A stretch of 64,000 nt of DNA, taken from positions 24,994 through 88,993 of IMG/VR virus record IMGVR_UViG_3300035070_003276; one strand, written 5' to 3'. Shown one piece after another: positions 1 through 42,105 of this stretch. The DNA is from a virus. Taxonomy: Duplodnaviria > Caudoviricetes. Under the pieces are notes generated by a model, which searched no databases, was not told the DNA's origin, and saw nothing but the letters and a program-made list of their open reading frames with translations. Each line of letters begins with the position of its first letter. Positions within the stretch are counted from its first letter, which is position 1. The position numbers and the translations under genes are program-made.

Positions 1-213
1 TTGTTTGAGTGTATTATTGCACAAAGGTTGATTGATTCAATTGATGGTATTGATGTTAGTGATACGATTCGTAGATACAATCCCCAAATTATAGCTGATA
101 AGAAACCTGGTAGAAACGAAAGAGTTATGTTACAATCACCTGATGGTGAAATGGAATTCGTAAAGTATAAAAAAGCAGAACGATTATTAAACAAAGGATA
201 TCAATTAGTATAA
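1..213 (+). CDS. 5'-truncated peptide-deformylase-like protein with a degenerate metal motif and a basic C-terminal tail
   Basis: ECIIAQRLIDSIDGI aligns with the deformylase xxxxQHExDHLxG motif but lacks both His and the Glu; tail KKPGRNERV...VKYKKA; the ORF probably starts before base 1. Confidence 0.45.
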   Translation: MFECIIAQRLIDSIDGIDVSDTIRRYNPQIIADKKPGRNERVMLQSPDGEMEFVKYKKAERLLNKGYQLV

Positions 214-461
214 TGGCAATACTCACATACACATCAGAAGAACCAACTAATAGAGAGGCAATGAGTGTATCATTTGATATGCCTGATGATATGAACATAT
301 ATGAATTTAAAATTATGTGTGTTCGCTTAGCAAGTTCTTTGGGATACCACCCATCTTCAATTAAAAATGCATTTGGAGAAACCGAAATCAGAACAAATTT
401 GGATAACGAATTAGCAGATTTAATTAATTCAATGAACGTAACAACTAGTTCGTTAGTATGA
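213..461 (+). CDS. hypothetical protein
   Basis: 82-aa ORF tightly packed with its neighbours (TAATG and ATGA overlaps). Confidence 0.75.
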   Translation: MAILTYTSEEPTNREAMSVSFDMPDDMNIYEFKIMCVRLASSLGYHPSSIKNAFGETEIRTNLDNELADLINSMNVTTSSLV

Positions 462-670
462 TAGATGATGTTATACTACATAAACTATTAACTTTAGAAG
501 TGATAGTTGAAACACTAATGGATACGTTAATAGAAAATGAATTAATAGATGTTGAAAAATTTGATGATTCTCTTGTGGAAAAAATAAAAGAGTTGGGCAG
601 TATATCAACTAAAACTAAAGATGAATTTGATTATTCACCTTTTCTAATGGGCCCAAAAGGAGAAGCCTAA
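458..670 (+). CDS. hypothetical acidic protein
   Basis: 70-aa ORF with an ATGA overlap with the upstream gene. Confidence 0.75.
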   Translation: MIDDVILHKLLTLEVIVETLMDTLIENELIDVEKFDDSLVEKIKELGSISTKTKDEFDYSPFLMGPKGEA

Positions 671-676
671 AATAAA

Positions 677-708
677 TTTGGAAAATTGAAATATTTTTCG
701 TATATTTA
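677..708 (+). promoter_or_regulatory. Bacteroidota primary-sigma-type promoter
   Basis: TTTG-N20-TATATTTA; the known consensus is TTTG-N19-21-TAnnTTTG. Confidence 0.6.
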
Positions 709-724
709 CATTATCTTTTATATT

Positions 725-988
725 ATGGAAATTTTATATATTATATTAGGAGTATCAATCATACTGAATATCTTTCTTTTTTGGAGAGGTATTCGTTTGG
801 TTACTCAAGTAGAACAATCTCAACTAAACGTTGTTAACACCAATTATAATACTCTACAAACATTGGAAACTATGTTAGATGAAATGAGGCAGTTGGATTT
901 AAAGGGTTCATTTGAATCCGATGATGAAGTGGGTGTAGTATTCTCAGAATTAAAAGATGTTATTAAAAAATATAAAGATAACATTTAA
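725..988 (+). CDS. small membrane-anchored coiled-coil protein
   Basis: N-terminal TM helix MEILYIILGVSIILNIFLFW; start moved from 686 to ATG 725 because 686-708 is promoter sequence. Confidence 0.75.
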   Translation: MEILYIILGVSIILNIFLFWRGIRLVTQVEQSQLNVVNTNYNTLQTLETMLDEMRQLDLKGSFESDDEVGVVFSELKDVIKKYKDNI

Positions 989-991
989 ATT

Positions 992-1717
992 ATGGCAAAA
1001 CCAAGAAAGAAGAAATCAAAAATATATTTTGGAACACCTGCGCAAGATGCTATTATCGAATACAATAATAGTAAAGACCCGCGTGAACGAAATCAGATAT
1101 ATAAAGAACGTATCAAATTTCCATTCGAAAAACTAGCTGAGAATATTATGAATACATTTAAGTTCTCATACTTTGATGTACCAAAGATTGATATTCAGAA
1201 TGAAGTAGTATCTGTATTGATACAAAAGATACATATGTATAAGCCTGATAAGGGTCGAGCTTTCTCATATTTTTCTATTGTTGCAAAGAATCATTTAATT
1301 CTACAAAACAATGGAAATTACAAACGTTATAAAAAAACAGCATTACTTTCTCAGATGCCGGAATCTTGGAACCCAGAAGATAACTTTCATGTTGACCAAC
1401 AAGGTTCAGAATTCAATGAATTTAAAGAATTAATGTTGGAGTATTGGGATAAAAACTTAACAAAGGTATTTAATAAGAAGAGAGATATTCAAATAGCAGA
1501 TGCTATTTTGGAGTTATTTCGAAGAAGTCAATACATAGAAAACTTTAATAAAAAGCATTTATACCTTCTTATTAGAGAAATGACTGATTGTAAAACTCAT
1601 TATATTACAAAAGTAGTTAACGTTATGAAAGAACATCAAAAACGAATGTTAAACGAATATTTGGATTACGGAGAGATATCAGATAATCCAAATGAAGATG
1701 AGTTCTTTTCCTATTAG
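992..1717 (+). CDS. phage sigma-factor-like protein (late sigma, T4 gp55-like)
   Basis: sigma70 region-2-like segment DIQNEVVSVLIQKIHMYKPDKGRAFSYFSIVAKN; size and context fit gp55-like factors. Confidence 0.7.
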   Translation: MAKPRKKKSKIYFGTPAQDAIIEYNNSKDPRERNQIYKERIKFPFEKLAENIMNTFKFSYFDVPKIDIQNEVVSVLIQKIHMYKPDKGRAFSYFSIVAKNHLILQNNGNYKRYKKTALLSQMPESWNPEDNFHVDQQGSEFNEFKELMLEYWDKNLTKVFNKKRDIQIADAILELFRRSQYIENFNKKHLYLLIREMTDCKTHYITKVVNVMKEHQKRMLNEYLDYGEISDNPNEDEFFSY

Positions 1718-1721
1718 TATA

Positions 1722-1729
1722 ATACTTAT
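1722..1729 (+). promoter_or_regulatory. putative late promoter ATA(T/C)TTAT
   Basis: ATACTTAT; same motif recurs in most intergenic gaps. Confidence 0.5.
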
Positions 1730-1830
1730 ATTTAGATAAATTAGGAAACACTACAAATCCTAAACAGTTTTATTAATCACTTTGGTTTTATTAATAAGTT
1801 ATAGTTACTTCACTAAAGAGTAATTATCTT

Positions 1831-3762
1831 ATGAAACGATTTTTATTAGGCCTGATACTAATGTTACCATTTGTGTCTTATGGTCAAAATGGGGCTAATG
1901 AAATACTTACAGCCCCTAACTCAAACTCTCCACATATACTTGTGGATACTCTATTTACGTTAGAGCAAGATATTTCGGTTGGTTATACTGAAATTTATTT
2001 ACACTACGCTAACCCAACCCCATCTGATATATTCTCAGCTGTTCAGTTCAGAATATTCTATGATGATGTTAAGTTTACAACCCCTGAGATTTATTGGGGA
2101 CCTACTGCTACTCCGATTACTGATAAGTATGGTTCTTACTTTGCTAATTCAGATTATGTAAACGTTATTGCATCTTATACAGGTAACAATAGTGGATTTG
2201 ATTGGGCAGATGGGGCAATGTTTAAATTACGATTATATCACACTACCGCATACGATGGTGTTGTAGATTCAATTGCAATAGCTGGCTCAACAACTTACAA
2301 TAACTTAGCAACTACAACTTCCGGATTAGATGTTCCATTAGCAATGCACAACTATGGTGGTAATTTCCAAATGGATATTTTGGAGTTCCCAATTATTGCA
2401 AGAAATGCAGATGGAACTCCTGCACAAGGTATGTGGTTTACTGCTCAAAAAAGATTAAAATCAGATGTTTCTGGTTTATGGACACCAATCTCAATGGATT
2501 CAACAAACTCAAATGGATTGTTCGTTGTACAAGACCAATTAGATACCGCATTTTGGCATCTGAGAGTTACTGCACAATCTGATACGATGAGTGATGGGTT
2601 TGCATTATCCGTAACTGATGCATATAAATTAGCAAACCAAGCTTCTCAACAAGATACACTTTCGGGAATCGAATGGTATGCTGGTGATATTAACGAAAGT
2701 AACGATGTAACCATTTCAGATGCATTCGCAATGTTTAATAGATTAGCATTACAATCTACAACGTGGACATCATTATTTAGTGGTGTAAACAACGTAGCAA
2801 TATTATGGCCAGATGAATACATATCAGCATTGGCTGCAACTACATCTCCAACTTGGACAAACACTCCGAGAGTTTACGTAATAGACACAATTGTAAACTC
2901 AATGGATTCACTTAAACCTTACATTTATGTAGTAGGTGATGCAACTACAACGGGTTACAACAACCCTGGTGTATTGGTTGCTAAGATGGCTGACCCCGGT
3001 ATTGGGACGGATTACATATTAGACCCAGCGGTATATCTTTCAAACAAACCTGATACTGTTGAATTTAGAATTCCTAAGTTAACAATGACGGTTGATAATA
3101 AAATGAGTGTACCTGTAACTCTCTACACATTTGGTAACCAATTAGGTGCTATCCAAATGGGTATTGAATTCGATACTACTATCTTTAGATTTGAATCAAT
3201 TGAAATGGGTGATGCAACTTCTAAATGGACATCAGTTCTATCGGTGGAGAAAGGAAAAGTATTTTGGGCAGGACATGAGGATAGATTAAACCCAGCATTG
3301 GTTGATGATATGACAACTCAGTTCACATTTAACTTTGAGGTAATTGACCCATTGGGTTGGAATCAATCACCATTAAAAATAGTTGAAAAAATGGCTGGTG
3401 ATAGATATGCACAAGATGTTAGTGTTAAACCTTCACCAAATGATGGTTCAGTTGTTAATAGAACTTCAATTGACCCTGAGTTAGACCTGATGATGAATGG
3501 ATTCAAAGTTTATCCAAATCCAACAACTGAATTTATGGGACATTGGGTTGTATTTGAATATCACACTTACTTAGAGGATGGTGATGTTAATGCAATCGTT
3601 TATGATATTAATGGTAGAGAGGCAATGAGATGGTCTGATAAGATTTATCAAAGTGGTTTCCAATTCCAAGGTTTCACAATGGAAAATTTACCAAACGGAA
3701 TGTATTTGGTAAGGTTGGTTACGCAAGATAGAGATAAAGTTTATAGAATTATTAAAAAGTAA
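1831..3762 (+). CDS. secreted T9SS cargo protein: cohesin-like, Ig/carboxypeptidase-regulatory-like, dockerin-like, second cohesin-like, T9SS type A C-terminal domain
   Basis: signal peptide MKRFLLGLILMLPFVSYG/Q; SAVQFRIFYD and GAIQMGIEFD cohesin-like strands; SVTDAYKL...AGDINESNDVTISDA dockerin-like pair; KVYPNPT...YDINGR...LPNGMYLVRL...RIIKK CTD. Confidence 0.8.
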   Translation: MKRFLLGLILMLPFVSYGQNGANEILTAPNSNSPHILVDTLFTLEQDISVGYTEIYLHYANPTPSDIFSAVQFRIFYDDVKFTTPEIYWGPTATPITDKYGSYFANSDYVNVIASYTGNNSGFDWADGAMFKLRLYHTTAYDGVVDSIAIAGSTTYNNLATTTSGLDVPLAMHNYGGNFQMDILEFPIIARNADGTPAQGMWFTAQKRLKSDVSGLWTPISMDSTNSNGLFVVQDQLDTAFWHLRVTAQSDTMSDGFALSVTDAYKLANQASQQDTLSGIEWYAGDINESNDVTISDAFAMFNRLALQSTTWTSLFSGVNNVAILWPDEYISALAATTSPTWTNTPRVYVIDTIVNSMDSLKPYIYVVGDATTTGYNNPGVLVAKMADPGIGTDYILDPAVYLSNKPDTVEFRIPKLTMTVDNKMSVPVTLYTFGNQLGAIQMGIEFDTTIFRFESIEMGDATSKWTSVLSVEKGKVFWAGHEDRLNPALVDDMTTQFTFNFEVIDPLGWNQSPLKIVEKMAGDRYAQDVSVKPSPNDGSVVNRTSIDPELDLMMNGFKVYPNPTTEFMGHWVVFEYHTYLEDGDVNAIVYDINGREAMRWSDKIYQSGFQFQGFTMENLPNGMYLVRLVTQDRDKVYRIIKK

Positions 3763-3774
3763 CATTAATTTATT

Positions 3775-4152
3775 ATGAAAGAAGAAATCAAAGAAGGGAT
3801 GTCCACTCTTAAAAAAGGTGTGATTGGATTGTTGGGAACATTAGTAGCAGGTGTGGGAACATTTGTAACTACTCAATTTAATTCATTATTGGGAATTGAA
3901 GAAGAATCAGAAACTCCAACTGAGATTGTAGTGCCGGTTGAAAACACACAACAACAAAATGTGAATGTAACTGGACCTGAAATCATCATTAACATTCCAC
4001 AACAACAAACACCAGCTCCTACTCGTACAATCATAAGAGAGACTGTTAAGGAAGTTCCTGCAGCGCCGATTGAAGTTGTAGAAGAGAAGCCAGAAACTCC
4101 AATGGAAAGAATGGCTAGACTAAAAAGAGAAAGAGCAGAAAAAAATAAATAA
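3775..4152 (+). CDS. single-TM protein with a Pro/Glu/Thr-rich stalk
   Basis: GVIGLLGTLVAGVGTFVTT hydrophobic helix followed by a low-complexity region. Confidence 0.75.
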   Translation: MKEEIKEGMSTLKKGVIGLLGTLVAGVGTFVTTQFNSLLGIEEESETPTEIVVPVENTQQQNVNVTGPEIIINIPQQQTPAPTRTIIRETVKEVPAAPIEVVEEKPETPMERMARLKRERAEKNK

Positions 4153-4154
4153 TT

Positions 4155-4895
4155 ATGAGAACGAGAAAAGATGTAATTTTAGAATGGACAGTAGCACCTT
4201 TGATGCTTATCCTTACCGCTTGTGCCTTAGTATTTGTAGGTACATTCGCAACCTCATGTTCTTCATCAGTTGGTGTGGTTCAATATCAAGCTGATTTTGA
4301 GAAGGCAGAACCCCTAAATACAATTCCACCATTTACAGGTGAGAAGCAAATTGTACAACTTTCGAAATTAAATGTAAATAAAGAACTATGGGAAATGTTT
4401 CCTGAGTTGAGAGATAAGAGAGTTGGTTTAGGTGTATCGAATCGTATTATCGAAAACTTTGAGATGACTCAAAGATTCAAATACGCTGAAGAAAAAGAAG
4501 CTATTCAAAACCAAATGTTAGATGCTTGGGAAGCCGAACTCAATGGAATGGGTGATGGGCAAACTGAGTTAAAGATGGAGGGCATTGCTTTACCTAAGTA
4601 TATCGTATATGCTGAGATTTATGATTTCGCAGTATCGTATGGTGAAAACTATAAACGGGGTAAATCAGAAATAACTAACACTACTATTATGGGTATCCAA
4701 ATCAGAATGGTCAATGTAGATAACTCACAATACATCGTAGCGAGTGGACAGGGAACTGCAACTCAGATAGGTGAGGGATTCTTCAAAAATCCACAAATGG
4801 GTTTTGATAATTCAACTGTTGGTATCGCTACCCAACGTGCGTTAGAGGTTGCTACGGTAAACCTTGTGAAACGTATGGAAAGTTATGGATGGTAA
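4155..4895 (+). CDS. CsgG/HfaB-family lipoprotein
   Basis: hydrophobic segment plus lipobox-like FATS/C; CsgG-like pattern LGVSNRIIENFEMTQRFKYAE...YIVYAEIYDF...GIQIRMVNVDNSQYI. Confidence 0.7.
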   Translation: MRTRKDVILEWTVAPLMLILTACALVFVGTFATSCSSSVGVVQYQADFEKAEPLNTIPPFTGEKQIVQLSKLNVNKELWEMFPELRDKRVGLGVSNRIIENFEMTQRFKYAEEKEAIQNQMLDAWEAELNGMGDGQTELKMEGIALPKYIVYAEIYDFAVSYGENYKRGKSEITNTTIMGIQIRMVNVDNSQYIVASGQGTATQIGEGFFKNPQMGFDNSTVGIATQRALEVATVNLVKRMESYGW

Positions 4896-6336
4896 GAAAT
4901 GGTTAATAGTATTATTACTTCTTATAGGGTTTAAGTCATTTGGGCAATCGTTCCAATACACTTATATTGACCCCTGTACTGGTGTTCCTAATACTGTAAC
5001 TATTTCACAACCTTCAGGTTCGGTAACTCTTTTTTACGCAGGACAATATCAGAATTTTACATCAACCCAACTTCAAGCCGGTGGTTATGAAGCTTGGGTT
5101 GCTTCTATTAATGCTGCATCCCCACCGGGTTCTAATCCTTGTGCTGGAAATGCTGGAGCCGTAAGTGGTTCTACTTCTGCATCGGTAGGTACGAACGTAT
5201 CAAATACCGTATCTAACATATCGGGTGCACTTGCCACATTGGGTTCTTCCACATCTGGTGGTTCCTCTGGTGGAATGGGTACATCTACCTCTTCATCTGG
5301 TAGTTCATCATCAACCTCTTCTTCAAACGATGGTGGTTCATCTTCTGGTAGTAGTGGTACCGATGGTGGTGATACTGGTGGAAGTGGTAGTGGCGATACT
5401 GGGGGTTCTGGTGGTTCTTCTGGTAGTGGAGATGGTGGTAGTGGTGATACTGGTGGAGGTTCTTCTGGTGGAGGTTCTGGTGGTTCTGGTGGTTCATCGG
5501 GTGGAGGTTCTACTGAGGGTGGTGTATCATCCGATGGTGGTAGTACAACTTCAGATGGGGATGGTGGCTCATCTAATGGTGGGGCAATTGGTGATAAAGA
5601 TATTGATGCAGAATCAGGTGGACAATCATCTGATTCCGAATCCGAAGATTCCGGTGGAAGTGGTGGTGGAAAGAAAAAGAAAAAAGGAGCAAGAGCAAGA
5701 AGGGGTTCGTTAATTGCATCGGGTGATATGGTAGTTGTTCGTAATGGTTCAGATTACAAAGAAAGTGGTAACGATAATCTTAAATTCAATATGGGGGTTA
5801 CTTGGGCAAATACTAACCAAACAATTACGGCTGGTGGGCTGTTAAATTATACAACGGGGCAAAATGAATTTTCTCTTACGGGATATGGTTCTTTTAAGAT
5901 TGAAGAATCAATGATTGTAGGGTCTAACTCATTCCTATACAATGTATCTCAACAAACTTGGTTCAATACGGGTAATGTAATGTATGCATTCAAACAAAAT
6001 AAGTATTTAACCACATTAATGGGAACTAACTTTTCAGTAGGTCAATTAGGTGATGAAACATTTTCAAATTGGGCAGCAAACATTGGTACATTTACTACCT
6101 TTAATGGTTATAAAGGATTTGCGATGAACTTAATGGGTATCGCAATGTACTCACCTTATACTTTCTTCTATGAAGGACAATGGTTCAAAGGAGGATTCCT
6201 TTTTGTACCTCTAACAAGTTTTGATTTTAATGTTACAAAAACTTTTAAATTTAATATATCTACCTCAACTGTATATTTAATGGGTGAGGGTATATTAAAC
6301 TTTCAACTAATGACTGGTACGAAGATGTTGTTATGA
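4885..6336 (+). CDS. secreted protein: small N-terminal domain, long Gly/Ser linker, C-terminal outer-membrane beta-barrel-like domain
   Basis: signal peptide ending SFG/Q; about 140 aa of G/S/D/T linker; about 200 aa of alternating hydrophobic and aromatic strands ending FQLMTGTKMLL. Confidence 0.65.
   Translation: MDGKKWLIVLLLLIGFKSFGQSFQYTYIDPCTGVPNTVTISQPSGSVTLFYAGQYQNFTSTQLQAGGYEAWVASINAASPPGSNPCAGNAGAVSGSTSASVGTNVSNTVSNISGALATLGSSTSGGSSGGMGTSTSSSGSSSSTSSSNDGGSSSGSSGTDGGDTGGSGSGDTGGSGGSSGSGDGGSGDTGGGSSGGGSGGSGGSSGGGSTEGGVSSDGGSTTSDGDGGSSNGGAIGDKDIDAESGGQSSDSESEDSGGSGGGKKKKKGARARRGSLIASGDMVVVRNGSDYKESGNDNLKFNMGVTWANTNQTITAGGLLNYTTGQNEFSLTGYGSFKIEESMIVGSNSFLYNVSQQTWFNTGNVMYAFKQNKYLTTLMGTNFSVGQLGDETFSNWAANIGTFTTFNGYKGFAMNLMGIAMYSPYTFFYEGQWFKGGFLFVPLTSFDFNVTKTFKFNISTSTVYLMGEGILNFQLMTGTKMLL
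5242..5670 (+). repeat. GGT/TCT-rich low-complexity tract encoding a Gly/Ser linker
   Basis: repeated ggtggttct and ggtagtggt codons; imperfect, without a fixed period. Confidence 0.85.
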
Positions 6337-7532
6337 TACGATGGTTAAAATTCTTTTTGGTATTTCCGTTGGGGTTGTTTTCACAAAATGTAACCTTTGC
6401 AACTGTTGGTATCCAAGATATGAGTGGCATTGATGTAACAATCATTCATACTCAACCTGGTGGTACAATTGGTAGTATATCTCAAATGACAAGTGGTATT
6501 CCGACAGATAGAGGACAGGGAACTACAACCATATTCGCATCAGCTAATTCGGACCAAGGTTCAGTTATAGTAAACTTTCCAAATGGATATGAACCCGAAA
6601 TTGGTGGTACATCTTATTCCACCGGTAAACTTCATGCTAATGCTTGGTTAGCTTTTCCAACTACAAACTATAATAGTTTCGCTAGTTCAGCATCTGCACC
6701 AAATGTACCTACACTTCACTTTACTTCGGTAAACAATGGTAGTACCGATAACAATATGTCTCACGTTTCTACTGAGACTTATAATGACCCATCATTAGGT
6801 GATGTATTTAGAATTAGGTATGAGGGAAGTTATAGGTATAATGTGAGTGGTATCAATACAAAGATAGACTTATACTTTGCAAAGAATAACAACAAAGAAA
6901 TCTTAGTGGTACTTAGACAATTTTTGGCAGATGGTTCAAATCAAGAACAAATCGGATTATCAAATGGTAGTAGTTGGTTAGCATCTAACATTATCTCATC
7001 TACATCATATTCAAACGGAAACGCTTGGTCAATCGATAATACTGTATTGGTTGGTGTAAGGGATACTTTAACAACACAAACCACAACATCAACCGGTATG
7101 TTAAATTTTAACAATCCAAATAACTACGATTATGAAGTGATAGTGGATGTGAGTAATATGAACAATATACTTACTGAATCTGAAATGAATTACTTAATGT
7201 ATCTAAGAATGTTCCCAAATGAAATTACATCTTGGGATTATCATACGATGAACTTCTACACATTAGATAGTTCAGATATTACAACTTATTCGGATGTATT
7301 CTCTGCATATCAACTATACAAATTGGGACAGAACTTTGGATACACTTATAATAACAATTGGGTATATTCACAATCGGAAAAAGATGATATAGAATCAAAT
7401 GCAAATAGTTTAATTTATCATTTAAAGTATCCAAAAGAATCAATCAGAACATTTAACAATCTCAATAGGTTTTATATCGTTTCTTTGGGTAAACACCGAA
7501 GAACAACTAATACAAAAACAATAACACAATGA
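6333..7532 (+). CDS. secreted protein with a degenerate dockerin-like C-terminal region
   Basis: signal peptide ending GLFS/Q; ATGA-coupled on both sides; LTESEMNYL...DSSDITTYSDVFSAYQL parallels the dockerin-like region of the gene at 1831. Confidence 0.65.
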   Translation: MIRWLKFFLVFPLGLFSQNVTFATVGIQDMSGIDVTIIHTQPGGTIGSISQMTSGIPTDRGQGTTTIFASANSDQGSVIVNFPNGYEPEIGGTSYSTGKLHANAWLAFPTTNYNSFASSASAPNVPTLHFTSVNNGSTDNNMSHVSTETYNDPSLGDVFRIRYEGSYRYNVSGINTKIDLYFAKNNNKEILVVLRQFLADGSNQEQIGLSNGSSWLASNIISSTSYSNGNAWSIDNTVLVGVRDTLTTQTTTSTGMLNFNNPNNYDYEVIVDVSNMNNILTESEMNYLMYLRMFPNEITSWDYHTMNFYTLDSSDITTYSDVFSAYQLYKLGQNFGYTYNNNWVYSQSEKDDIESNANSLIYHLKYPKESIRTFNNLNRFYIVSLGKHRRTTNTKTITQ

Positions 7533-7927
7533 ATCCAATCGTATGCTATTTCGTAGCAAGTGTAATCTCACTTGCATCTCTAAAGGATATTCCTGAAGAA
7601 AAGTTCACTTTCGGTGTAAGACAAATCACCGAAGAAATCGTAGGACAAGACCAACCATTATGTCCTGATGGTTCACCAATCTATGTTACAGTAGAATCAA
7701 TCAAAGCACCAACCAAAGGAATCCAAATCGGACCATTTAAGTTCAAACAAAAGAAAACTTTGGTAACGGTAAACGTTGTAAAAGATGGAGTTGAATCAAT
7801 AGGTGTAGGTTCGGCTAAAATGAATGTATCTGCAACACTTTTACAATTGCAAGATGAGAACTTACCATTCGAACAAACGGAATTTTCAGTTGCAATGAAA
7901 AAGGCAATTGAGGATGCGATGGATTAG
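7529..7927 (+). CDS. small alpha/beta protein, possibly a truncated CsgG-like fold
   Basis: FGVRQITEEIV...IYVTVESI...LVTVNV...FSVAMKKAIEDAM echoes the layout of the protein at 4155; ATGA-coupled. Confidence 0.55.
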   Translation: MNPIVCYFVASVISLASLKDIPEEKFTFGVRQITEEIVGQDQPLCPDGSPIYVTVESIKAPTKGIQIGPFKFKQKKTLVTVNVVKDGVESIGVGSAKMNVSATLLQLQDENLPFEQTEFSVAMKKAIEDAMD

Positions 7928-7954
7928 ATACATCCGTTACTTTTTAGTTTATTG

Positions 7955-7962
7955 ATATTTAT
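7955..7962 (+). promoter_or_regulatory. putative late promoter
   Basis: ATATTTAT, 25 nt upstream of ATG 7988. Confidence 0.55.
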
Positions 7963-7987
7963 ATATTGAATACAATATCAATATGCT

Positions 7988-8383
7988 ATGTCAAATGATT
8001 TCGAAATATTTCCTGGTAAAAGTTTAAGTGGACTTTTTGAGGATATCTACAATAATCAAATTAATAAAAAGAGGCACATCTCTGAGGTAATTGCTGAACT
8101 ACGTAAGTTAGTTCGTAATCCAAATGATATGAGATACATAGGTCCTCTTATTAAAGATTTAATTGATACATCTGTTCGTAACGATGAATCATTAATTAAA
8201 CTTGCTACAATAGCTCAACGAATTATGATTGCTGGGACTAGAAGCGAAGGTGAAGAAGGTTACTTATCTGAAGCAGAGCGAGAGCAATTACTTTCTCAAA
8301 TCGATGAAGTTCAAATGGAAGTTCAACGAATGGATGATATGCAAAATGAAATCGAAGAGGTAAAGCAAAAATTAGAAAAGTAA
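7988..8383 (+). CDS. hypothetical helical/coiled-coil protein
   Basis: 131-aa ORF heading the baseplate block. Confidence 0.8.
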   Translation: MSNDFEIFPGKSLSGLFEDIYNNQINKKRHISEVIAELRKLVRNPNDMRYIGPLIKDLIDTSVRNDESLIKLATIAQRIMIAGTRSEGEEGYLSEAEREQLLSQIDEVQMEVQRMDDMQNEIEEVKQKLEK

Positions 8384-8384
8384 A

Positions 8385-9605
8385 ATGGGAATAGGTAGTA
8401 GTAGAAACATATCCATTGGTAGTAACCAACAAATTGATATTAGACCTAACGATAAAAGTAGTGTTGGTGTTGTTTTTAAAGTCATACTTGATATAGATGA
8501 TGAACTATTGGATATAAAGGAAATACCTGAGAATGAAAAAGCCAAATACATTGGAGCCATCCAATATAGATTACAATCATCTAATGAAAAAAGTGAAAAT
8601 GATTTACCAATAGCAATTCCCTATAATAGTAATTACACTGCTTTACCTATAAAAAACGAAGTTGTACGAATTATACGAGTTGATGGTGTTGGATTACAAT
8701 ATGAGAGAGTAGTAACATCAGCAACTCCAAACGTATCTGGTGATTCTAATATCATATCTAAATCAACTACAAAAGATAAAGGTCCTAATGAAACAAATGC
8801 ATCCGATTATAGTAAAGTTCAAAAAACAGGAGTAAGTAGGAGTACACAATCTGATAATGTGAGTACTGATACTTATGGTGAGTATTTTGAATCAGATTTA
8901 AATATACACAAATTACGTATTTTTGAGGGTGATACTTTTGTTGAAAGTAGATTTGGTCAATCAATACGATTTAGTGGGTATAATAACCCAGACCAAAAAC
9001 TATACCCAACCATTACAATACGTAATGATGAAAATGGTGAATCACGTGCAACCCCAATTGGTAAAACAACAATTGAAGATATAAATAAAGATGGTAACAT
9101 TATATTTTTAGGTAGTCGTAATCATTTATTACCATATACGTTACCAACTGAAAACGAACATATATCTTTTAAAAACTATCCATCTGAACTTAAAGGAAAT
9201 CAAATTGTATTAAATTCAGATAGAATTGTATTATCAGCTAAAGCAGCTGAAATGATATTAGTATCAAAAAAAGATGTTGGTATCATAACTGATAGTTTAT
9301 TTTCTATTGATGCCACTGGTGGTATTGATGTTACATTGGATGGTGATACTAATTATAAAACAAACGATAGAGATATCAACTTAAATACTGGTAATGGTAA
9401 AGTTAATATTGGTGACCAAAACTTAGAATCATTGGTTAAGGGTGAAACTTTAGTTAATTTAATGACTGAACTAATTACAGCGATAGAAGTGATGACAGTA
9501 GCAACTCCAGCCGGCCCATCTACACCACCGATAAATGTAGCATCATTTAGTAAAGTAAAATCTCAATTAAGAACAATGTTGAGTAATTTAAATAAAACAT
9601 CATAA
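8385..9605 (+). CDS. baseplate hub/spike protein (gp5/gpV-like)
   Basis: N-terminal OB-fold-like region (LPIKNEVVRII), GDTFVESRFGQSIRF motif, beta-rich spike and VKGETLVNLM...TPAGPS tip; lies upstream of the wedge genes. Confidence 0.6.
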   Translation: MGIGSSRNISIGSNQQIDIRPNDKSSVGVVFKVILDIDDELLDIKEIPENEKAKYIGAIQYRLQSSNEKSENDLPIAIPYNSNYTALPIKNEVVRIIRVDGVGLQYERVVTSATPNVSGDSNIISKSTTKDKGPNETNASDYSKVQKTGVSRSTQSDNVSTDTYGEYFESDLNIHKLRIFEGDTFVESRFGQSIRFSGYNNPDQKLYPTITIRNDENGESRATPIGKTTIEDINKDGNIIFLGSRNHLLPYTLPTENEHISFKNYPSELKGNQIVLNSDRIVLSAKAAEMILVSKKDVGIITDSLFSIDATGGIDVTLDGDTNYKTNDRDINLNTGNGKVNIGDQNLESLVKGETLVNLMTELITAIEVMTVATPAGPSTPPINVASFSKVKSQLRTMLSNLNKTS

Positions 9606-10543
9606 TGTCTTGGACTTTATTCAAAGTAAATATATTAAGAAAAACTAATCCTAATTTTACCATCAATAGCATAAATGAAGTTGCTGCGATATGGGCCGAT
9701 GAGTATGATGCGGCTGTAAAGCGAGGTAAGGATTTTGTAAACTTTGAATCGGTTCAACGAGGTAATAAAGTAATAATGGAATCTTTATTTAGAGTTGCAT
9801 TATTAAAAGGATTATCAACTTTACCTGGTCAAAACTTTTCATTAGTAAACGAATTTGGAAATGGTGTAAAGGCATATTGGGCTGGCGCTCAAATGAAACC
9901 ACTCCCATTACCATTAATACCAGCACCAGGTTCAATACAAAATATTTCAGTAAATTCCAATGTTGTGTTTAATGTAGGTACATGGCCAATTTACCCACCA
10001 TTAAAACCCGCTAGAAAGCAGGAGATAATGGTAGATATGTTTATACTTGCTGCACTAATTCACTTATTTAGTATTGGTGGTATTATACAAACAACATCAT
10101 TATACCCATCAGTACCAACACCAATACCAGCTCCAGGTATTATTCCTTGGACTGGTTACTTAGTACCTCCTACAATTCCAATTCCTAATATCAACTTCCC
10201 TTCTGAAGATAACAATGAACCACCGGTAATTGAACAACCTGATGGAAGTGATGGATATGCACTCAATGTTACCAACCAAAGTAGTGGAACCAATAATGGA
10301 CAAGATGGTGGAACCAATAATGGACAAGGTAGTGGAACCAATAATGGACAAGGTAGTGGAACCAATAATGGGCAAGGTAGTGGAACCAATAATGGACAAG
10401 GCAATATATTGGGAGGGGATACTTCATTACAAAACGTATTAAATGTATCATTACCTGATATGAGTGTTGATTCATTTGATGTAAAGGCTTATATAGCTAG
10501 TTTCCAACAACAACTTAAAGATGATGGGTGTTGTTGTGATTAA
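9605..10543 (+). CDS. hypothetical baseplate-region protein with a tandem (G/S)GTNNGQ(G/D) repeat
   Basis: 312-aa ORF with a TAATG overlap; Pro-rich middle; five 8-aa repeats. Confidence 0.75.
   Translation: MSWTLFKVNILRKTNPNFTINSINEVAAIWADEYDAAVKRGKDFVNFESVQRGNKVIMESLFRVALLKGLSTLPGQNFSLVNEFGNGVKAYWAGAQMKPLPLPLIPAPGSIQNISVNSNVVFNVGTWPIYPPLKPARKQEIMVDMFILAALIHLFSIGGIIQTTSLYPSVPTPIPAPGIIPWTGYLVPPTIPIPNINFPSEDNNEPPVIEQPDGSDGYALNVTNQSSGTNNGQDGGTNNGQGSGTNNGQGSGTNNGQGSGTNNGQGNILGGDTSLQNVLNVSLPDMSVDSFDVKAYIASFQQQLKDDGCCCD
10281..10400 (+). repeat. tandem repeat, 5 x 24 bp (gtagtggaaccaataatggacaag), in frame
   Basis: copies at 10281, 10305, 10329, 10353 and 10377; at most 2 mismatches per copy. 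Confidence 0.95.
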
Positions 10544-10565
10544 AAATTGAAAATACTTAATTTAA

Positions 10566-10573
10566 ATATTTAT
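10566..10573 (+). promoter_or_regulatory. putative late promoter
   Basis: ATATTTAT upstream of ATG 10601. Confidence 0.55.
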
Positions 10574-10600
10574 AAGGAGAGTAATATAAAAGATAATAAA

Positions 10601-11179
10601 ATGAATACTGATAAATTAGTAAAGGCAATTCAAATTATTGTAGAAGGAGAGATTAAATCAGTTCTACCTGGGTTGGTAAAAGCTGGTGTTAAAAAGGAGA
10701 TGGTAAAGTTGTTAAAAGAAAATAAACAACTTAGAGAGGCTTTAACGCCAACCAAAGAAGTAGTTCCACCTCAACCTACATTTATGGATGAAACTGTTAT
10801 GGAATCAATACAACCTCAACAACCACAACGAGTGTTAAGTAAAAACCCGGTATTGAATCAAATATTAAATCAAACACAGCCACTTAGTTTAAGTGAAAAT
10901 ACCTCAAAGAGCGTATTAGATAAAATGCCTACTTATGCTGGTGCACCAACTGAAGTATCTGAAACAACAATGGAGTTTGGAACACAAAGTACTCATACAT
11001 TAGGTGCACAAAGTATAGCTGATAAAATGGGGTATGGTGATATGCAACCTGCTGGTAAAAAGCAAGGATTGGGTGTTTCAACTGGATTAGCTGGATTAGA
11101 TAGAATTTTGAATAGAGATAATTCTGAATTGATTAAAGCTTGGGATAAATCTAAAGGTCCTTGGAGGCCAGGAATGTAA
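10601..11179 (+). CDS. hypothetical protein
   Basis: ORF track starts at TTG 10547; ATG 10601 downstream of the promoter motif is preferred. Confidence 0.75.
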   Translation: MNTDKLVKAIQIIVEGEIKSVLPGLVKAGVKKEMVKLLKENKQLREALTPTKEVVPPQPTFMDETVMESIQPQQPQRVLSKNPVLNQILNQTQPLSLSENTSKSVLDKMPTYAGAPTEVSETTMEFGTQSTHTLGAQSIADKMGYGDMQPAGKKQGLGVSTGLAGLDRILNRDNSELIKAWDKSKGPWRPGM

Positions 11180-11187
11180 TATAAATT

Positions 11188-11616
11188 ATGGCAGTTGAAC
11201 TAGGTAGTAAGATAGTAAAGGATACGCAATCATTTAACGATTATGCGATTGGTATATCTTTGCCTATTCAAATAACCAATACGGCATTCGAGCAAACATT
11301 CCAAACATCGGAGCAAGTAAAATCTAATATTAAGAATCTTCTATTAACAAAAAAAGGTGAACGAATATTACAACCTGAATTCGGAAGTGGATTGCAGGAA
11401 TTATTATTTGAACCAAACGTTGATGATTTTGAAGGTAGAATTGAAGATACTATAAATGAAAGTTTAGAACAATGGTTACCATATGTAACCGCTGAGGAAA
11501 TTTTAGTTGATTCATCCGATACATTAAGAGATAATAATAGAATAAATGTTTCAGTTAAATTTAGAATTGGTCAAAATACCGATTTAAACGAAGTAACATT
11601 TACAGCACAGGGATAA
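11188..11616 (+). CDS. gp25: baseplate wedge / sheath initiator (T4 gp25 / P2 gpW-like)
   Basis: VKSNIKNLLLTKKGERILQPEFGSGLQELLFE...LEQWLPYV signature. Confidence 0.9.
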   Translation: MAVELGSKIVKDTQSFNDYAIGISLPIQITNTAFEQTFQTSEQVKSNIKNLLLTKKGERILQPEFGSGLQELLFEPNVDDFEGRIEDTINESLEQWLPYVTAEEILVDSSDTLRDNNRINVSVKFRIGQNTDLNEVTFTAQG

Positions 11617-11620
11617 CAAT

Positions 11621-13651
11621 ATGGCTATAACTAAAACAAATAAAAACTTTAAGAATAGAGGTAAGGATATAAAATACCTTAATAAAGATTTTGCTCAATA
11701 TAGGGGAAACTTAATTGAGTTTGCTAAAACATATTTCCCAAAAACTTATTCGGATTTTAACGAATCATCGCCAGGTATGATGTTTATTGAAATGGCATCT
11801 TATATTGGTGATTCCCTTTCATATTATATTGATGATACTTTAAAAGAATCATTAATGGTTCATGCTGAAGATATTGAGAATGTAATTGCACTTTCACAAT
11901 ATTTGGGTTACCAACCAAAGGTAACATCACCAGCAGTAACAACCCTTTCGGTTTATCAATTAGTTCCATCTATTGGAGTAGCTGGTGCTAATACTTATGA
12001 TGAAACTTATTTACTTACTATTAAAGAAGGTATGCAAGTTTCAAATGGAGATACTACGTTTATAACAAAGGATGTTGTTGACTTTTCAGATGATACTGAT
12101 AGAGAAATAACTATATATGAAACTGATAGTATAAGTGGAGAAACTACATTCTATTTAGTTAAGAAATATGTTCAAGCTATTTCAGCAGAAGTTGTAACTA
12201 AGGAAGTTGAATTTGGTTCTTATCAATCATTTCAAACTATTGAGTTAAGTGAACCAAACGTAATAGATATTTACGATGTTAGAGATTCTAACGGAAACAA
12301 ATGGTATGAAGTTCCTTACTTAGGACAGGAGATGGTATTTGAGGATTATCCAAATACTGAAATAAATGACCCAGAGTTATATCAATTTAAAACAACTGTA
12401 CCTTACATTTTAAAAACAATTAAGACACCTCGTAGATTTGTTAAAAAAGTAAATGGTGATAGTACAACTACTATTCAATTTGGAGCTGGAGACCCAACTG
12501 CAAATGATGAACAATTAATTCCAAACTTAAAAAACGTTGGATTGGGATTACCCAATTCAATTAGTAAGTTAAATGAATCATTTGACCCAACTAACTTTCT
12601 GAAAACAAAAACATACGGAACATCACCATCAAACACAACTATGACTATTAAGTATTTAGTTGGTGGTGGTATTAGTTCTAATGTATCTAAGGGTTCACTT
12701 ACTGTAATTAACTCAATTGATTTTGAAGAAGATTTACAATCATTCAATGATAATCAGCAAGCGTTGGTATCTGCAACTAAAAACTCCGTAGCAGTTGATA
12801 ATGAGGTTCCCGCAACTGGTGGGAAAGGTGGAGATACTATTGAGGAGATTAGAGAGAATGCATTGGCAAACTTTGGCTCTCAGAATAGAGCAGTAACTGC
12901 TAAGGATTATCAAATAAGAGTTTTATCAATGCCAACCAAATATGGTTCTATTGCAAAGGCTTACGCTACGGCAGATGGTACGTTGGATAATAACTCACCA
13001 TCATCTATTTTGAGTTCGCCTAAAGCTCTACAAGAGTTTACTGATTTGGTAATGGGATTTGTTGAAAAGCCTGATAGTGAGGAACCCAATAGAAGAAGTG
13101 TTCAGGAAGAACTACAAAAATTCTTGATTGGCAAAACCTCAAATGAAAACGAAAAGAATAACCCATTTGCAATCAATCTTTATTTATTGGGATATGATGG
13201 TAATGGTAAATTATCAACATTAAATTCTGCTGTTAAGGAAAATTTAAAAACATATTTAAATGAATACAAAGTTTTAACCGATGGTGTTAATATATCTGAT
13301 GGATTTATTATTAACATTGGTATTAACTTTGAAGTAATAACTTTAAAGAATTATAATAAGAGTGAAGTTGTTACTGAATGTATTAATGAAATGAAAGATT
13401 ATTTTGATATTAATAATTGGACATTTAATAATACGATAAACATTTCGGAGTTGGAACTATTATTAGCAAACGTTGATGGTGTAAGTTCAGTTCCTAAATT
13501 AGAAATAGTGAATAAGTGTCATGGAAACTACGCACCTAATTCATATAACATAGAAGCGGCCATTAAAGATAAGATTTTATATCCATCTTTAGACCCTTCA
13601 GTATTTGAAATTAAATTTCCAGATGTGGATATAAAAGGAAGAGCTAGATAA
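11621..13651 (+). CDS. gp6: baseplate wedge subunit (T4 gp6 / baseplate J-like)
   Basis: YSDFNESSPGMMFIEMASYIGD and QNRAVTAKDY motifs; follows the gp25-like gene. Confidence 0.85.
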   Translation: MAITKTNKNFKNRGKDIKYLNKDFAQYRGNLIEFAKTYFPKTYSDFNESSPGMMFIEMASYIGDSLSYYIDDTLKESLMVHAEDIENVIALSQYLGYQPKVTSPAVTTLSVYQLVPSIGVAGANTYDETYLLTIKEGMQVSNGDTTFITKDVVDFSDDTDREITIYETDSISGETTFYLVKKYVQAISAEVVTKEVEFGSYQSFQTIELSEPNVIDIYDVRDSNGNKWYEVPYLGQEMVFEDYPNTEINDPELYQFKTTVPYILKTIKTPRRFVKKVNGDSTTTIQFGAGDPTANDEQLIPNLKNVGLGLPNSISKLNESFDPTNFLKTKTYGTSPSNTTMTIKYLVGGGISSNVSKGSLTVINSIDFEEDLQSFNDNQQALVSATKNSVAVDNEVPATGGKGGDTIEEIRENALANFGSQNRAVTAKDYQIRVLSMPTKYGSIAKAYATADGTLDNNSPSSILSSPKALQEFTDLVMGFVEKPDSEEPNRRSVQEELQKFLIGKTSNENEKNNPFAINLYLLGYDGNGKLSTLNSAVKENLKTYLNEYKVLTDGVNISDGFIINIGINFEVITLKNYNKSEVVTECINEMKDYFDINNWTFNNTINISELELLLANVDGVSSVPKLEIVNKCHGNYAPNSYNIEAAIKDKILYPSLDPSVFEIKFPDVDIKGRAR

Positions 13652-26501: not shown

Positions 26502-27440
26502 ATGCTCTCCGCAAGAAATAAATTAGTTGTTATAAATGTATTGGATTCTACATTAGGTGTGGGTTCATCTATGAAGGGAAACGAACAGGCACATCACTGT
26601 CCTTTTTGTCACCATCATAAGAAGAAATTACAAATAAATTTAGATTCTCAATATTGGCATTGTTGGGTATGTGATTCTAAGGGAAGAAGTATCCAATCAC
26701 TTTTACGGAAGCTAAATGTAGATAGAGGTGATTTATCAAAAATCATTTCTATCTATGGAGAGTATAAACCATCTACTAATCATAAGGAGGTAGAAAAAAT
26801 ACAACTTAAACTTCCTAAAGAATTCAAACCACTTCATCAGAAACCAAAATCGATAGATTTTGCATACAATCAAGCATTGGGATATCTTTATAAGAGAGGT
26901 ATTACTATGGATGAAATATTAAAACATAATATTGGATATTGTGAAGATGGTATGTATGGTGGTAGGACTATTGTACCATCATATAATGCTGATGGTGAAT
27001 TAAACTATTTTGTAGCACGTTCGTATTATTCTGATAATACCATGAAATACAAAAACCCACCTGTTAGTAGAGATGTAATTGTATTTGATAACCAAATCAA
27101 TTGGAATGAACCAATTACACTAGTTGAGGGTGTGTTCGATTCATTCTCAGTAAAGAGAAACGTAATTCCCATCTTAGGAAAGTTTTTACCAAAAACATTG
27201 AAAGAGAAGATATTTGAAAAGGGAGTAAGTGAAATAAAAATCCTATTGGATGCTGATGCAGTTGATGATTCCACAAAGCATGCGGAATACTTTATAAAAA
27301 ATGGTATAAAGGTAACAAACATTATACCCACAGAAAGTGATGCTGGTGATATGGGATTTGATAAAGTAAATGAATTACTAAAAGAAACCAAAGAAAGTGG
27401 TTGGGATGATTTAATCCTATCTAAATTAAATAATATATGA
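26502..27440 (+). CDS. DNA primase (Zn finger plus TOPRIM; T4 gp61/DnaG-like)
   Basis: HCPFCHH...WHCWVC zinc finger; LVEGVFD and LLDADA TOPRIM motifs. Confidence 0.88.
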   Translation: MLSARNKLVVINVLDSTLGVGSSMKGNEQAHHCPFCHHHKKKLQINLDSQYWHCWVCDSKGRSIQSLLRKLNVDRGDLSKIISIYGEYKPSTNHKEVEKIQLKLPKEFKPLHQKPKSIDFAYNQALGYLYKRGITMDEILKHNIGYCEDGMYGGRTIVPSYNADGELNYFVARSYYSDNTMKYKNPPVSRDVIVFDNQINWNEPITLVEGVFDSFSVKRNVIPILGKFLPKTLKEKIFEKGVSEIKILLDADAVDDSTKHAEYFIKNGIKVTNIIPTESDAGDMGFDKVNELLKETKESGWDDLILSKLNNI

Positions 27441-30400: not shown

Positions 30401-30568
30401 GGAACTTTGGATAACGAAAACCTAACATCATTGTATATGTTGTTCGCTTATCTAAAAACTCAATTTGATTTTGTGATGATTATCTCACACATCGATTCAA
30501 TGAGGGATGTGGTGGATACTTTGATGGAAATCAAAAAAGTAAATGGATTCAGTAACATTAAATTTTAA
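27437..30568 (+). CDS. fused SbcD-SbcC (Mre11-Rad50; T4 gp47-gp46-like) nuclease-ATPase
   Basis: phosphoesterase motifs DLH, GD, GNHD, HG and GDIH; Walker A APNASGKSS; zinc hook CEIC; signature CSGMERF; Walker B VVDEGFGTLD; H-loop ISH. Confidence 0.92.
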   Translation: MKVEKIYHLADLHIRNLKRHKEYREVFQKFLDNVDRDNIENSVIYLAGDIAHAKTEMSPELVREISWLLTECANRKETFLITGNHDCNLNNNYRLDVLTPIVENLDNERIHYLRDTGVYKHHNLTFVVYSILDEKENWPKAKLVEGENKICLFHGPVNLAETDIGYTVSSNSFTTDMFDGFDMVMLGDIHKRQTLGTPTIAYAGSMIQQNHGEALNKHGYLLWDVESRTFEEFDIENDYGFYTLDVNDGVVPNVTNMPKKPRLRVRISNTDPTQIKRALTEIKKKYKVEEFTVTRMDTLSKQKTGNFDDKLAIGNVRDVEFQNELIKDYLERQYLADEDTIDKIKTINREMNSKLVDDDVTPNIQWVPKTFEFSNMFSYGENNKIKFDNVNGMVGIFAPNASGKSSLFDAISFCIFDKTSRTYVAKNVLNNRKDNFYCKLHFQIEDVDYFIERRAKLINKGKNLKVDVSFWKEDVGGITSLNGEQRRETNSIIQQYLGTYDDFVLTTLSLQGNNSLFIDKSQSERKEILAQFMGVDVFDKLYNFAQDENRDNASLIRKFKQDDFTQKLADIEVELKSKEAEYKLEEINLSTANAEVEKHNQKLISLNEKVVKVKSDNYSLTELETKKSTVVGKLVTLEEQRNLNQSKIETLEDEQIGLEESIDTYDEDDIIKEVELFNQYTSDLKDLDNELDKMKIREDSLMERMAHLETHKYNTDCEICMENSESIIDAKVGVEADLSIISVEKKEKFEYKNELLLGIDSRKKYPELLKELNKLKVDEEKVSRDINTLINKLSTMETQEVKLNSELLQVTQLITDYLENEKQIKQNKELRTEIQNVRTELLNSKKNLEKANKVILKLNGEVSSLTNQKQTIEERIKEVAKLEEQFGLYEYYLNALGKDGVSYELISKALPMIEGEVNNILGQIVEFGLQLEMDGKNINANIVYDDQKWSLEMCSGMERFISGLAIRIALINVCNLPRPNFLVVDEGFGTLDNENLTSLYMLFAYLKTQFDFVMIISHIDSMRDVVDTLMEIKKVNGFSNIKF

Positions 30569-42073: not shown

Positions 42074-42105
42074 TAAATAAGTGTAATTATACACTAAATT
42101 TGTTT

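Follow-up and report, generated by a model that had tools for sequence, protein, structure and literature searches.

The pelagimyophages (HTVC008M gp014-gp018) and the OM43 phage Melnitz carry csgF-csgG clusters to which no function has been assigned, and for which roles in uptake, 'sibling capture' and lysis timing have been proposed (PMC7029224, PMC9004378). 'Cryophage' is the one phage reported to encode type A cargo of a type IX secretion system (T9SS), including a PA14 protein (PMC7468147). Here, we describe a six-gene module (O1 to O6) at positions 1831-7927 of a 64,000-nucleotide (nt) stretch of phage DNA, the window, from the IMG/VR virus record IMGVR_UViG_3300035070_003276. The module is conserved and abundant, its function is undescribed, and its single ingredients have published precedents. 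The preliminary description of this locus had put it forward as an undescribed system; this holds for the full combination, of which literature searches found no published description, but not for its parts, since phage CsgG/CsgF clusters and phage T9SS cargo have already been published. We suggest that the module rebuilds the envelope of the infected Bacteroidota cell, which would then display carbohydrate-binding proteins, a proposal whose chances we judge to be about even.

Like the pelagimyophage and Melnitz curli operons, the module belongs to a T4-like myophage, and its co-oriented genes are grouped around a lipoprotein of the CsgG family. The pelagimyophage operon also resembles it in having no identified curlin subunits and in encoding a PA14-like protein: gp018, annotated as 'hypothetical' in the csgF-csgG cluster of HTVC008M, is matched at E 3e-7 by the PA14 proteins that occupy a variable slot of the module in other phages. 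In HTVC008M (L050, 4500-13500), gp018 lies at 6139-7464, and the next gene, gp019, encodes an adenylate/guanylate cyclase. The differences are considerable. HTVC008M CsgG is canonical (PF03783 180 bits, 280 amino acids (aa), full-length hairpins) and paired with CsgF, whereas O3, the corresponding lipoprotein, is short, divergent and below Pfam's threshold, and no CsgF was found in the module. Among the phage collection, the O3 lineage matches Flavobacterium phage vB_FspM_immuto and not the pelagimyophages. Finally, the module adds a T9SS cargo protein, a predicted inner-membrane tether, an autotransporter-like barrel and a mini CsgG-like protein.

Results

Organization of the module

The module comprises six open reading frames (ORFs):

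1831-3762, + strand: O1, 643 aa; signal peptide, cohesin and T9SS type A C-terminal sorting domain (CTD)
3775-4152, + strand: O2, 125 aa; one N-terminal transmembrane (TM) helix, Pro/Gln-rich
4155-4895, + strand: O3, 246 aa; CsgG-family alpha/beta fold, short hairpin regions, lipoprotein Cys at position 35
4885-6336, + strand: O4, 483 aa; signal peptide, N-domain, helix, Gly/Ser tether and predicted C-terminal barrel
6333-7532, + strand: O5, 399 aa; Sec-exported protein in the variable slot, sharing its termini with the slot proteins of other phages
7529-7927, + strand: O6, 132 aa; hydrophobic N-terminus, invariant C6 and C45, aa 51-132 homologous to O3

The gaps between O1 and O2 and between O2 and O3 are 12 nt and 2 nt, respectively, O3 and O4 overlap by 11 nt, and O4/O5 and O5/O6 each share an ATGA. 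Apart from one weak match at 1929, no + strand terminator-like site was found within the cluster. Because the genes are tightly coupled and there is no convincing internal + strand terminator, the six genes likely form a single transcript. By sequence, all six products carry export signals: a hydrophobic signal peptide with Gln behind it in O1, O4 and O5, the TM helix in O2, a lipobox Cys in O3 and the hydrophobic N-terminus in O6. Thus, the co-orientation of the six genes, the overlap or ATGA coupling of the last four and the export of at least five products, all claimed in the preliminary description, are borne out.

The same is true of the claim that none of the products resembles a virion or lysis protein: O1-O6 gave no match to PHROGs, virion families or lysis families. 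Nor did O1-O6 match the curli families of Pfam and NCBIfam, and direct family searches (Pfam, PHROGs, NCBIfam, PADLOC) with O2-O6 gave no match. The module proteins have no similarity to the tail and baseplate genes of this phage.

Conservation of the module in phages

The order O1-O2-O3-O4, one or two slot genes and O6 is kept, with the same gene coupling, at 24 IMG/VR loci, at which O3, the most conserved gene of the module, is 69-99% identical; the genes flanking the module vary among these loci. The frames have stayed intact and coupled at more than 24 divergent loci, and a paralogous copy has been maintained as well. Only one relative has been isolated, vB_FspM_immuto (160 kb). It keeps part of the module (gp014-gp019), with O1 split in two and no slot gene, and has a gene for a C-type lectin immediately upstream. 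In immuto, the module is located among nucleotide-metabolism genes and not beside tail genes, and the endolysin gene is ~8 kb away. Because the module is related to that of a Flavobacterium phage, we infer that the host of the phage in the window belongs to the Bacteroidota. A megablast search of window positions 1-12000 against the phage collection gave no match.

Divergent full modules (28-38% identity) are present in long contigs binned as bacteria, i.e., metagenome-assembled genomes. On one of these, the 254-kb contig L029, the module is accompanied by relatives of the large terminase (TerL; E 1e-33) and of the major head protein (MCP), and by this gene content the contig is a jumbo phage; its O4 ortholog aligns over the full length (hhalign probability 99.9%). 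On the 316-kb contig L026, the module lies amid phage-type genes, and on L039, which is phage-like, a PG_binding_1/GH19 endolysin-like gene is located two genes upstream of the module. Three phage-looking contigs are deposited as bacterial, i.e., L029 as 'uncultured Bacteroidetes', L026 as 'bacterium' and L031 (11 kb) as 'Pelagibacter TMED203'. L031 was considered as a bridge to pelagimyophage csgG, but immuto is the only phage record that its O3 homolog matches, and the idea was rejected.

The closest relatives carry a second, divergent module ~18 kb upstream of the main one (L047, G009:C1:28380-47287, - strand; reverse-complement positions 7896-13135). It opens with the gene for a small Sec protein, followed by genes for an O1-like protein that lacks a CTD and for a 118-aa lipoprotein. 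Next come paralogs of O2 (43% identity) and O3 (36%), and last an O4-like protein, whose N-domain has the same D.CTG pattern and whose linker is of low complexity and Q/A/S/T-rich. A single module is present in each of two complete relatives, of 173 kb and 119 kb.

Since the genes co-occur in homologous phage loci (the 24 IMG/VR loci, immuto, L026 and L029), neither a lack of co-occurrence nor the decay of a host fragment, two of the outcomes that the preliminary description had named as arguing against itself, was found. On this synteny, the module is a phage module and not a decaying host fragment.

O3 and O6 are related to CsgG

Direct searches say little about O3: the window protein has no match in Pfam, PF03783 is also without a match in the immuto record, and a single-sequence PDB search returned only noise. 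By contrast, the O3 family, which comprises 528 clusters at 90% identity and 177 representatives at 50% identity in an exhaustive search, is clearly related to CsgG. First, Pfam CsgG is matched by 27 of the 55 aligned full-length members (best E 1.9e-25) and LpoB by 11 of them. Second, the family profile finds E. coli CsgG in PDB at E 9e-7. Third, CsgG matches O3 far better than TraT does. C35 of O3 aligns with the canonical lipoboxes (L-[AST]-[GA]-C) of its relatives, which read LTGC, FAGC and FLGC, and the folded alpha/beta domain spans 211 aa. These findings substantiate the earlier assignment of O3 as a CsgG-like lipoprotein.

The preliminary description had gone further and invoked the secretion ring that CsgG forms in the outer membrane, which the hairpin regions do not support. 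E. coli CsgG, a lipoprotein with profile-level homology to O3, has full-length hairpins that make up a 36-stranded barrel. Compared to the E. coli and HTVC008M proteins, the TM1 hairpin region of O3 is 6 aa shorter and has a charged tip (ENYKRGKSE), the TM2 hairpin region is ~9 aa shorter, and both are polar or charged. This compact form is common to all 55 family members. Moreover, the short CsgG-like domain is fused to peptidase C14 (caspase) in the metagenomic proteins P0169, P0202 and P0216 and to Ser/Thr kinase domains in P0181 and P0213, and these fusions suggest that it is a general extracytoplasmic interaction module. Because the hairpins are short and charged throughout the family and the domain also occurs fused to caspases and kinases, O3 appears to be a CsgG-fold lipoprotein for which a channel function is rather unlikely. 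In a chromosome of the Ignavibacteriales (L051), an O3 homolog lies near a CHASE2 cyclase; neighbors of chromosomal O3 homologs at L035 and L037 were considered as O4-like and rejected.

PelC, which is without membrane hairpins, forms a ring under a porin. By analogy, a ring of O3 under the outer membrane, as PelC under PelB, would be the more economical reading. PelC-PelB and LptE-LptD resemble O3 and O4 as pairs of an outer-membrane lipoprotein and a barrel; the analogy is one of mechanism alone, with no sequence relationship. The barrels of these pairs have 16 or 26 strands as opposed to the 12 predicted for O4, and the module is without polysaccharide or lipopolysaccharide genes.

O6 had been described as a small CsgG-like protein, and this is upheld by its alignment to O3: aa 51-132 align with part of the C-terminal half of O3, namely its three-stranded beta-sheet and last helix (hhalign of alignment A2 versus A1: probability 90%, E 1.4e-6). 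Its nearest Atlas clusters are all viral.

O4 is a predicted tethered beta-barrel

O4 has four parts. The N-domain (aa 22-90, ~65 aa) is conserved, with C31 and C86 invariant, and a conserved helix is located at ~aa 102-123. The tether (~aa 95-265) is hypervariable, consists of 35% G and 32% S, and has a Lys/Arg patch at its end. The C-terminal domain (aa 275-483) is conserved and is modeled as a 12-stranded outer-membrane barrel. The tethered beta-barrel of the preliminary description is thus recovered in the predicted structure. The modeled 12-stranded C-terminal barrel with an N-terminal part outside the barrel is reminiscent of type Va autotransporters (NalP, EspP, EstA, AaaA) and 12-stranded porins (KdgM, NanC). 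Unlike type Va autotransporters, O4 has no Pfam match (none to the autotransporter beta-domain at E up to 0.1), a 'passenger' of only ~65 aa, a ~150-aa Gly/Ser tether between the conserved helix and the barrel, and a C-terminus that reads Leu-Leu. A CsgF-like N-terminus of O4 was considered and rejected, with hhalign giving probabilities of <1% against HTVC008M CsgF, the curlin-associated protein and gp017.

O1 is a candidate T9SS cargo protein and O2 a predicted inner-membrane protein

The N-terminus of O1 (MKRF, a hydrophobic core and a YG-Q boundary) is the same in 13 orthologs (alignment A5). Next come an N-terminal region that is conserved, an F-hand pair with weak similarity to dockerin (~aa 250-306), the cohesin from aa 411 and the CTD (aa 560-643). 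The CTD matches the T9SS type A sorting domain TIGR04183 with 32.9 bits versus a curated cut-off of 23. Por_Secre_tail (PF18962) scores 25.8 versus a gathering threshold of 27 in the window copy, and the cohesin (PF00963) 23.8 bits versus a threshold of 24.1; both are matched by 13 of 13 orthologs, with best E values of 1.4e-9 and 8.4e-12, respectively. Support for a dockerin is weaker: Dockerin_1 (PF00404) has weak matches in seven of the 13 orthologs (best E 0.03), and a D.N....SD.F..F.R pattern is conserved in this region. Accordingly, O1 stands as a T9SS-sorted cohesin protein, while the dockerin part of its earlier assignment is in doubt. Like the T9SS cargo of Cryophage, O1 is phage-borne, has a Sec signal and a type A CTD, and is associated with variable PA14-type genes. 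However, in Cryophage the CTD is on variable enzymes and a PA14 protein, whereas in the module it belongs to a cohesin protein that is conserved, and none of the variable lectin-type proteins has it.

O2 has a short cytoplasmic N-terminus and a Gly-rich TM helix with Lys before it and Glu after it. Behind these come an acidic patch, a spacer rich in N, Q and P, and a C-terminal helix that is basic and conserved (ERMARLKK; alignment A8). O2 is predicted to be an inner-membrane-anchored periplasmic protein with its N-terminus inside and its C-terminus in the periplasm. O2 orthologs are present in every homologous locus.

The slot between O4 and O6 is variable

Every protein encoded in the slot has a signal peptide followed by Gln. 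The slot proteins share an N-terminal segment and a ~140-aa C-terminal module, while the middle domain is swapped between loci: it is PA14 in five of the proteins scanned, with L014a, L023a, L005a and L026a among the loci, and a C-type lectin in one (L010b). In others it belongs to no recognized family, as in O5, where the homologs of the middle domain are all unnamed viral or metagenomic proteins. The earlier assignment of O5 as dockerin-like is not supported: among 16 proteins with the O5-type C-terminal module, Dockerin_1 touches one, at E 0.18, and the profile of this module has no match in PDB. An origin of the payload from the receptor-binding proteins of the phage was also rejected, there being no similarity to other window genes. 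The combination of a conserved O3 with a hypervariable slot and tether fits a conserved core with a diversifying ligand-binding part.

Genomic context and a flanking motif

In the window, the non-nested ORFs of at least 120 aa are all on the + strand and the GC content is about 32%. PHROGs matches mark the phage as a myophage:

11621-13651, + strand: baseplate wedge protein
52118-53698, + strand: TerL
54208-55980, + strand: portal
62502-63998, + strand: MCP

The module adjoins the baseplate genes, directly upstream of them. The GC content of its genes is 0.33-0.40 (O4, 0.40) versus 0.33 for the remaining window, and the Gly/Ser linker accounts for only part of this increase. Directly upstream of the module, an ORF at 992-1717 encodes a 241-aa protein whose conservation is limited to the closest relatives; it was considered as a gp55-like sigma factor and rejected, with no match in Pfam, PHROGs or NCBIfam.

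The preliminary description placed the module between two late-promoter motifs:

1729-1736, + strand: one-mismatch variant TATTTAGA of TATTTATA, ~95 nt upstream of O1
7956-7963, + strand: exact TATTTATA that marks the module's downstream edge, 32 nt ahead of the next gene (7988)

Only the downstream motif is exact; upstream of O1 there is no exact copy. TATTTATA is not over-represented by count in the window (14 copies versus 15.3 expected by chance), and its placement alone is non-random. Thirteen of the 14 copies are on the + strand, and at least six of these 13 precede a start codon by at most 45 nt; such positions account for 3.4% of the window. The extended form (A)TATTTATA(T) is mostly found 11-58 nt upstream of a start codon, at sites that include 7956, 17104, 24623, 25493, 31616, 46948, 53712 and 55992. 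It is plausible that the TATTTATA / ATATTTATAT motif is a phage promoter element, of unassigned class.

Elsewhere in the window, the ORF at 27437-30568 (1043 aa) matches SbcD-like PHROGs in its N-terminal part and SbcC-like PHROGs in its C-terminal part and is an apparent SbcD-SbcC fusion. The ORF at 31650-41714 (3354 aa) is far larger than any other. By PHROG matches, 42100-44274 encodes a glycosyltransferase fused with a DNA methyltransferase-like region and 46983-49466 an 827-aa protein containing a cytidylyltransferase; these two could be further surface-glycan or DNA-modification genes.

Discussion

Here, we suggest how the six proteins might act. The Sec, Lol, beta-barrel assembly (BAM) and T9SS machineries of the host would place them in the envelope of the infected cell. 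O1 would be exported by Sec and then guided by its type A CTD through the host T9SS to the cell surface, where it would expose its cohesin, a protein-docking module. O4 would reside in the outer membrane as a 12-stranded autotransporter-like barrel, holding its disulfide-bonded N-domain on a long flexible Gly/Ser tether. O3 would be lipid-anchored at the periplasmic face of the outer membrane and, with O6, would probably form an oligomeric CsgG-fold platform beneath the O4 barrel in a PelC/PelB-like manner, probably without being a 36-stranded channel itself. O2 would connect this assembly to the inner membrane. The slot proteins, i.e., O5 and the PA14 and C-type-lectin variants elsewhere, would be an interchangeable glycan-binding payload that is retained on or released through the assembly. 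The net effect would be an infected cell that shows carbohydrate-binding proteins chosen by the phage. The benefit that we favor is adhesion or aggregation, with glycan-rich particles or sibling cells as the target; receptor masking is the main alternative. A far more specific version, in which an O3/O6 ring and the O4 barrel, tied down by O2, export lectins that dock on the O1 cohesin to give a cellulosome-like adhesive coat gluing the cell to glycan particles or siblings, strikes us as improbable; if true, it would realize the pelagimyophage 'sibling capture' idea via a new secretion route.

Several observations weigh against an envelope rebuilt for the display of carbohydrate-binding proteins. 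Pfam and homolog searches found no recognized lectin domain in O5 of the window. O5 also has no recognizable route across the outer membrane, so that the payload could remain periplasmic. No dockerin partner for the O1 cohesin was found in the C-terminal module of the slot proteins or, beyond the weak matches, in O1 itself. The model of O4 is of moderate confidence (predicted local distance difference test (pLDDT) 55-75 for the barrel and <40 for the helix at aa 102-123), and its C-terminal Leu-Leu departs from the aromatic residue typical of BAM substrates. In the second module, the slot gene is missing and the O1-like protein has no CTD, so that T9SS routing and lectins may be accessory parts. 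Lastly, the single assembly of the six proteins, with any interaction among them, is a proposal.

Among the alternatives, superinfection exclusion or protection of progeny fares best, although we consider it unlikely. Here, the exported proteins would cover or alter the phage receptor, a surface glycan or an outer-membrane protein, with the consequence that other phages fail to adsorb and progeny are not lost on debris; a swappable lectin would then track variation in host glycans. Exported envelope proteins with a hypervariable, putatively glycan-binding payload fit this explanation. However, six genes of together ~6 kb, duplicated in some genomes, go far beyond the needs of known exclusion factors. 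Moreover, PADLOC has no matching family, O3 is much closer to CsgG than to TraT, and nothing in the module is similar to the tail or baseplate genes of the phage itself.

A self-contained type VIII-like (curli-type) secretion system, in which O3 with O6 would be a true oligomeric outer-membrane channel for the slot proteins, the N-terminal part of O4 or both, appears to us somewhat less probable still. CsgG is clearly the best relative of O3 in both structure and sequence, and the hairpin regions are shortened yet present. The slot proteins have a conserved segment right behind the signal peptide, which recalls the N22 targeting segment of CsgA, and the pelagimyophage csgFG clusters also include a PA14-like protein. 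Against these points stand the hairpin regions themselves, with TM1 cut by 6 aa to the charged ENYKRGKSE tip and TM2 by ~9 aa, in a compact form that is family-wide and also serves as a domain of caspases and kinases. PF03783 matches neither the window protein nor the immuto record, and, in contrast to the curli system, no relatives of CsgE, CsgF, CsgA or CsgB were found in the module.

That the module is a lysis device is very unlikely. In this scenario, O2 and O3 would work as inner- and outer-membrane spanins, or lysis would be timed by a gated pore made of O3 and O4. A pore of this kind has been put forward for Melnitz CsgGF (PMC9004378), O2 as an inner-membrane-anchored periplasmic protein directly precedes an outer-membrane lipoprotein, and L039 has its endolysin-like gene two genes upstream of the module. 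However, two-component spanins combine a coiled-coil inner-membrane part with a small Pro-rich outer-membrane lipoprotein, whereas O2 is Pro/Gln-rich and without such coiled coils and O3 has a folded 211-aa alpha/beta domain. In addition, no lysis PHROG is matched, no adjacent endolysin was found in the window, the endolysin of immuto is ~8 kb from the module, and T9SS cargo and lectins would be left unexplained.

The idea that the products are virion-associated, or that the genes are a functionless decaying fragment captured from a host, can draw on the position of the module directly upstream of the baseplate genes and on its GC content above that of the remaining window (0.33), but it is barely credible given that signal peptides, lipobox and T9SS CTD are conserved throughout and thus incompatible with cytoplasmic virion assembly, that the flanks vary between phages, with the immuto module among nucleotide-metabolism genes, and that intact, coupled frames persist in more than 24 divergent loci together with a maintained paralogous copy.

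Large aquatic Bacteroidota phages devote ~6 kb to this module, an amount that doubles in some genomes. Together with the hundreds of O3-homolog clusters in metagenomes, this investment points to a likely common and unrecognized viral reprogramming of the infected-cell surface. The module also provides short CsgG-fold lipoproteins and minimal autotransporter-like barrels as a natural collection in which to study what channel formation needs, and direct testing is possible in an isolated phage-host pair, vB_FspM_immuto on Flavobacterium sp. LMO8. If the payload consists of displayed lectins, the module would bear on how infected flavobacteria aggregate on particles of algal polysaccharide, on which hosts are open to competing phages and on the reading of the unexplained 'curli' clusters in SAR11 and OM43 phages.

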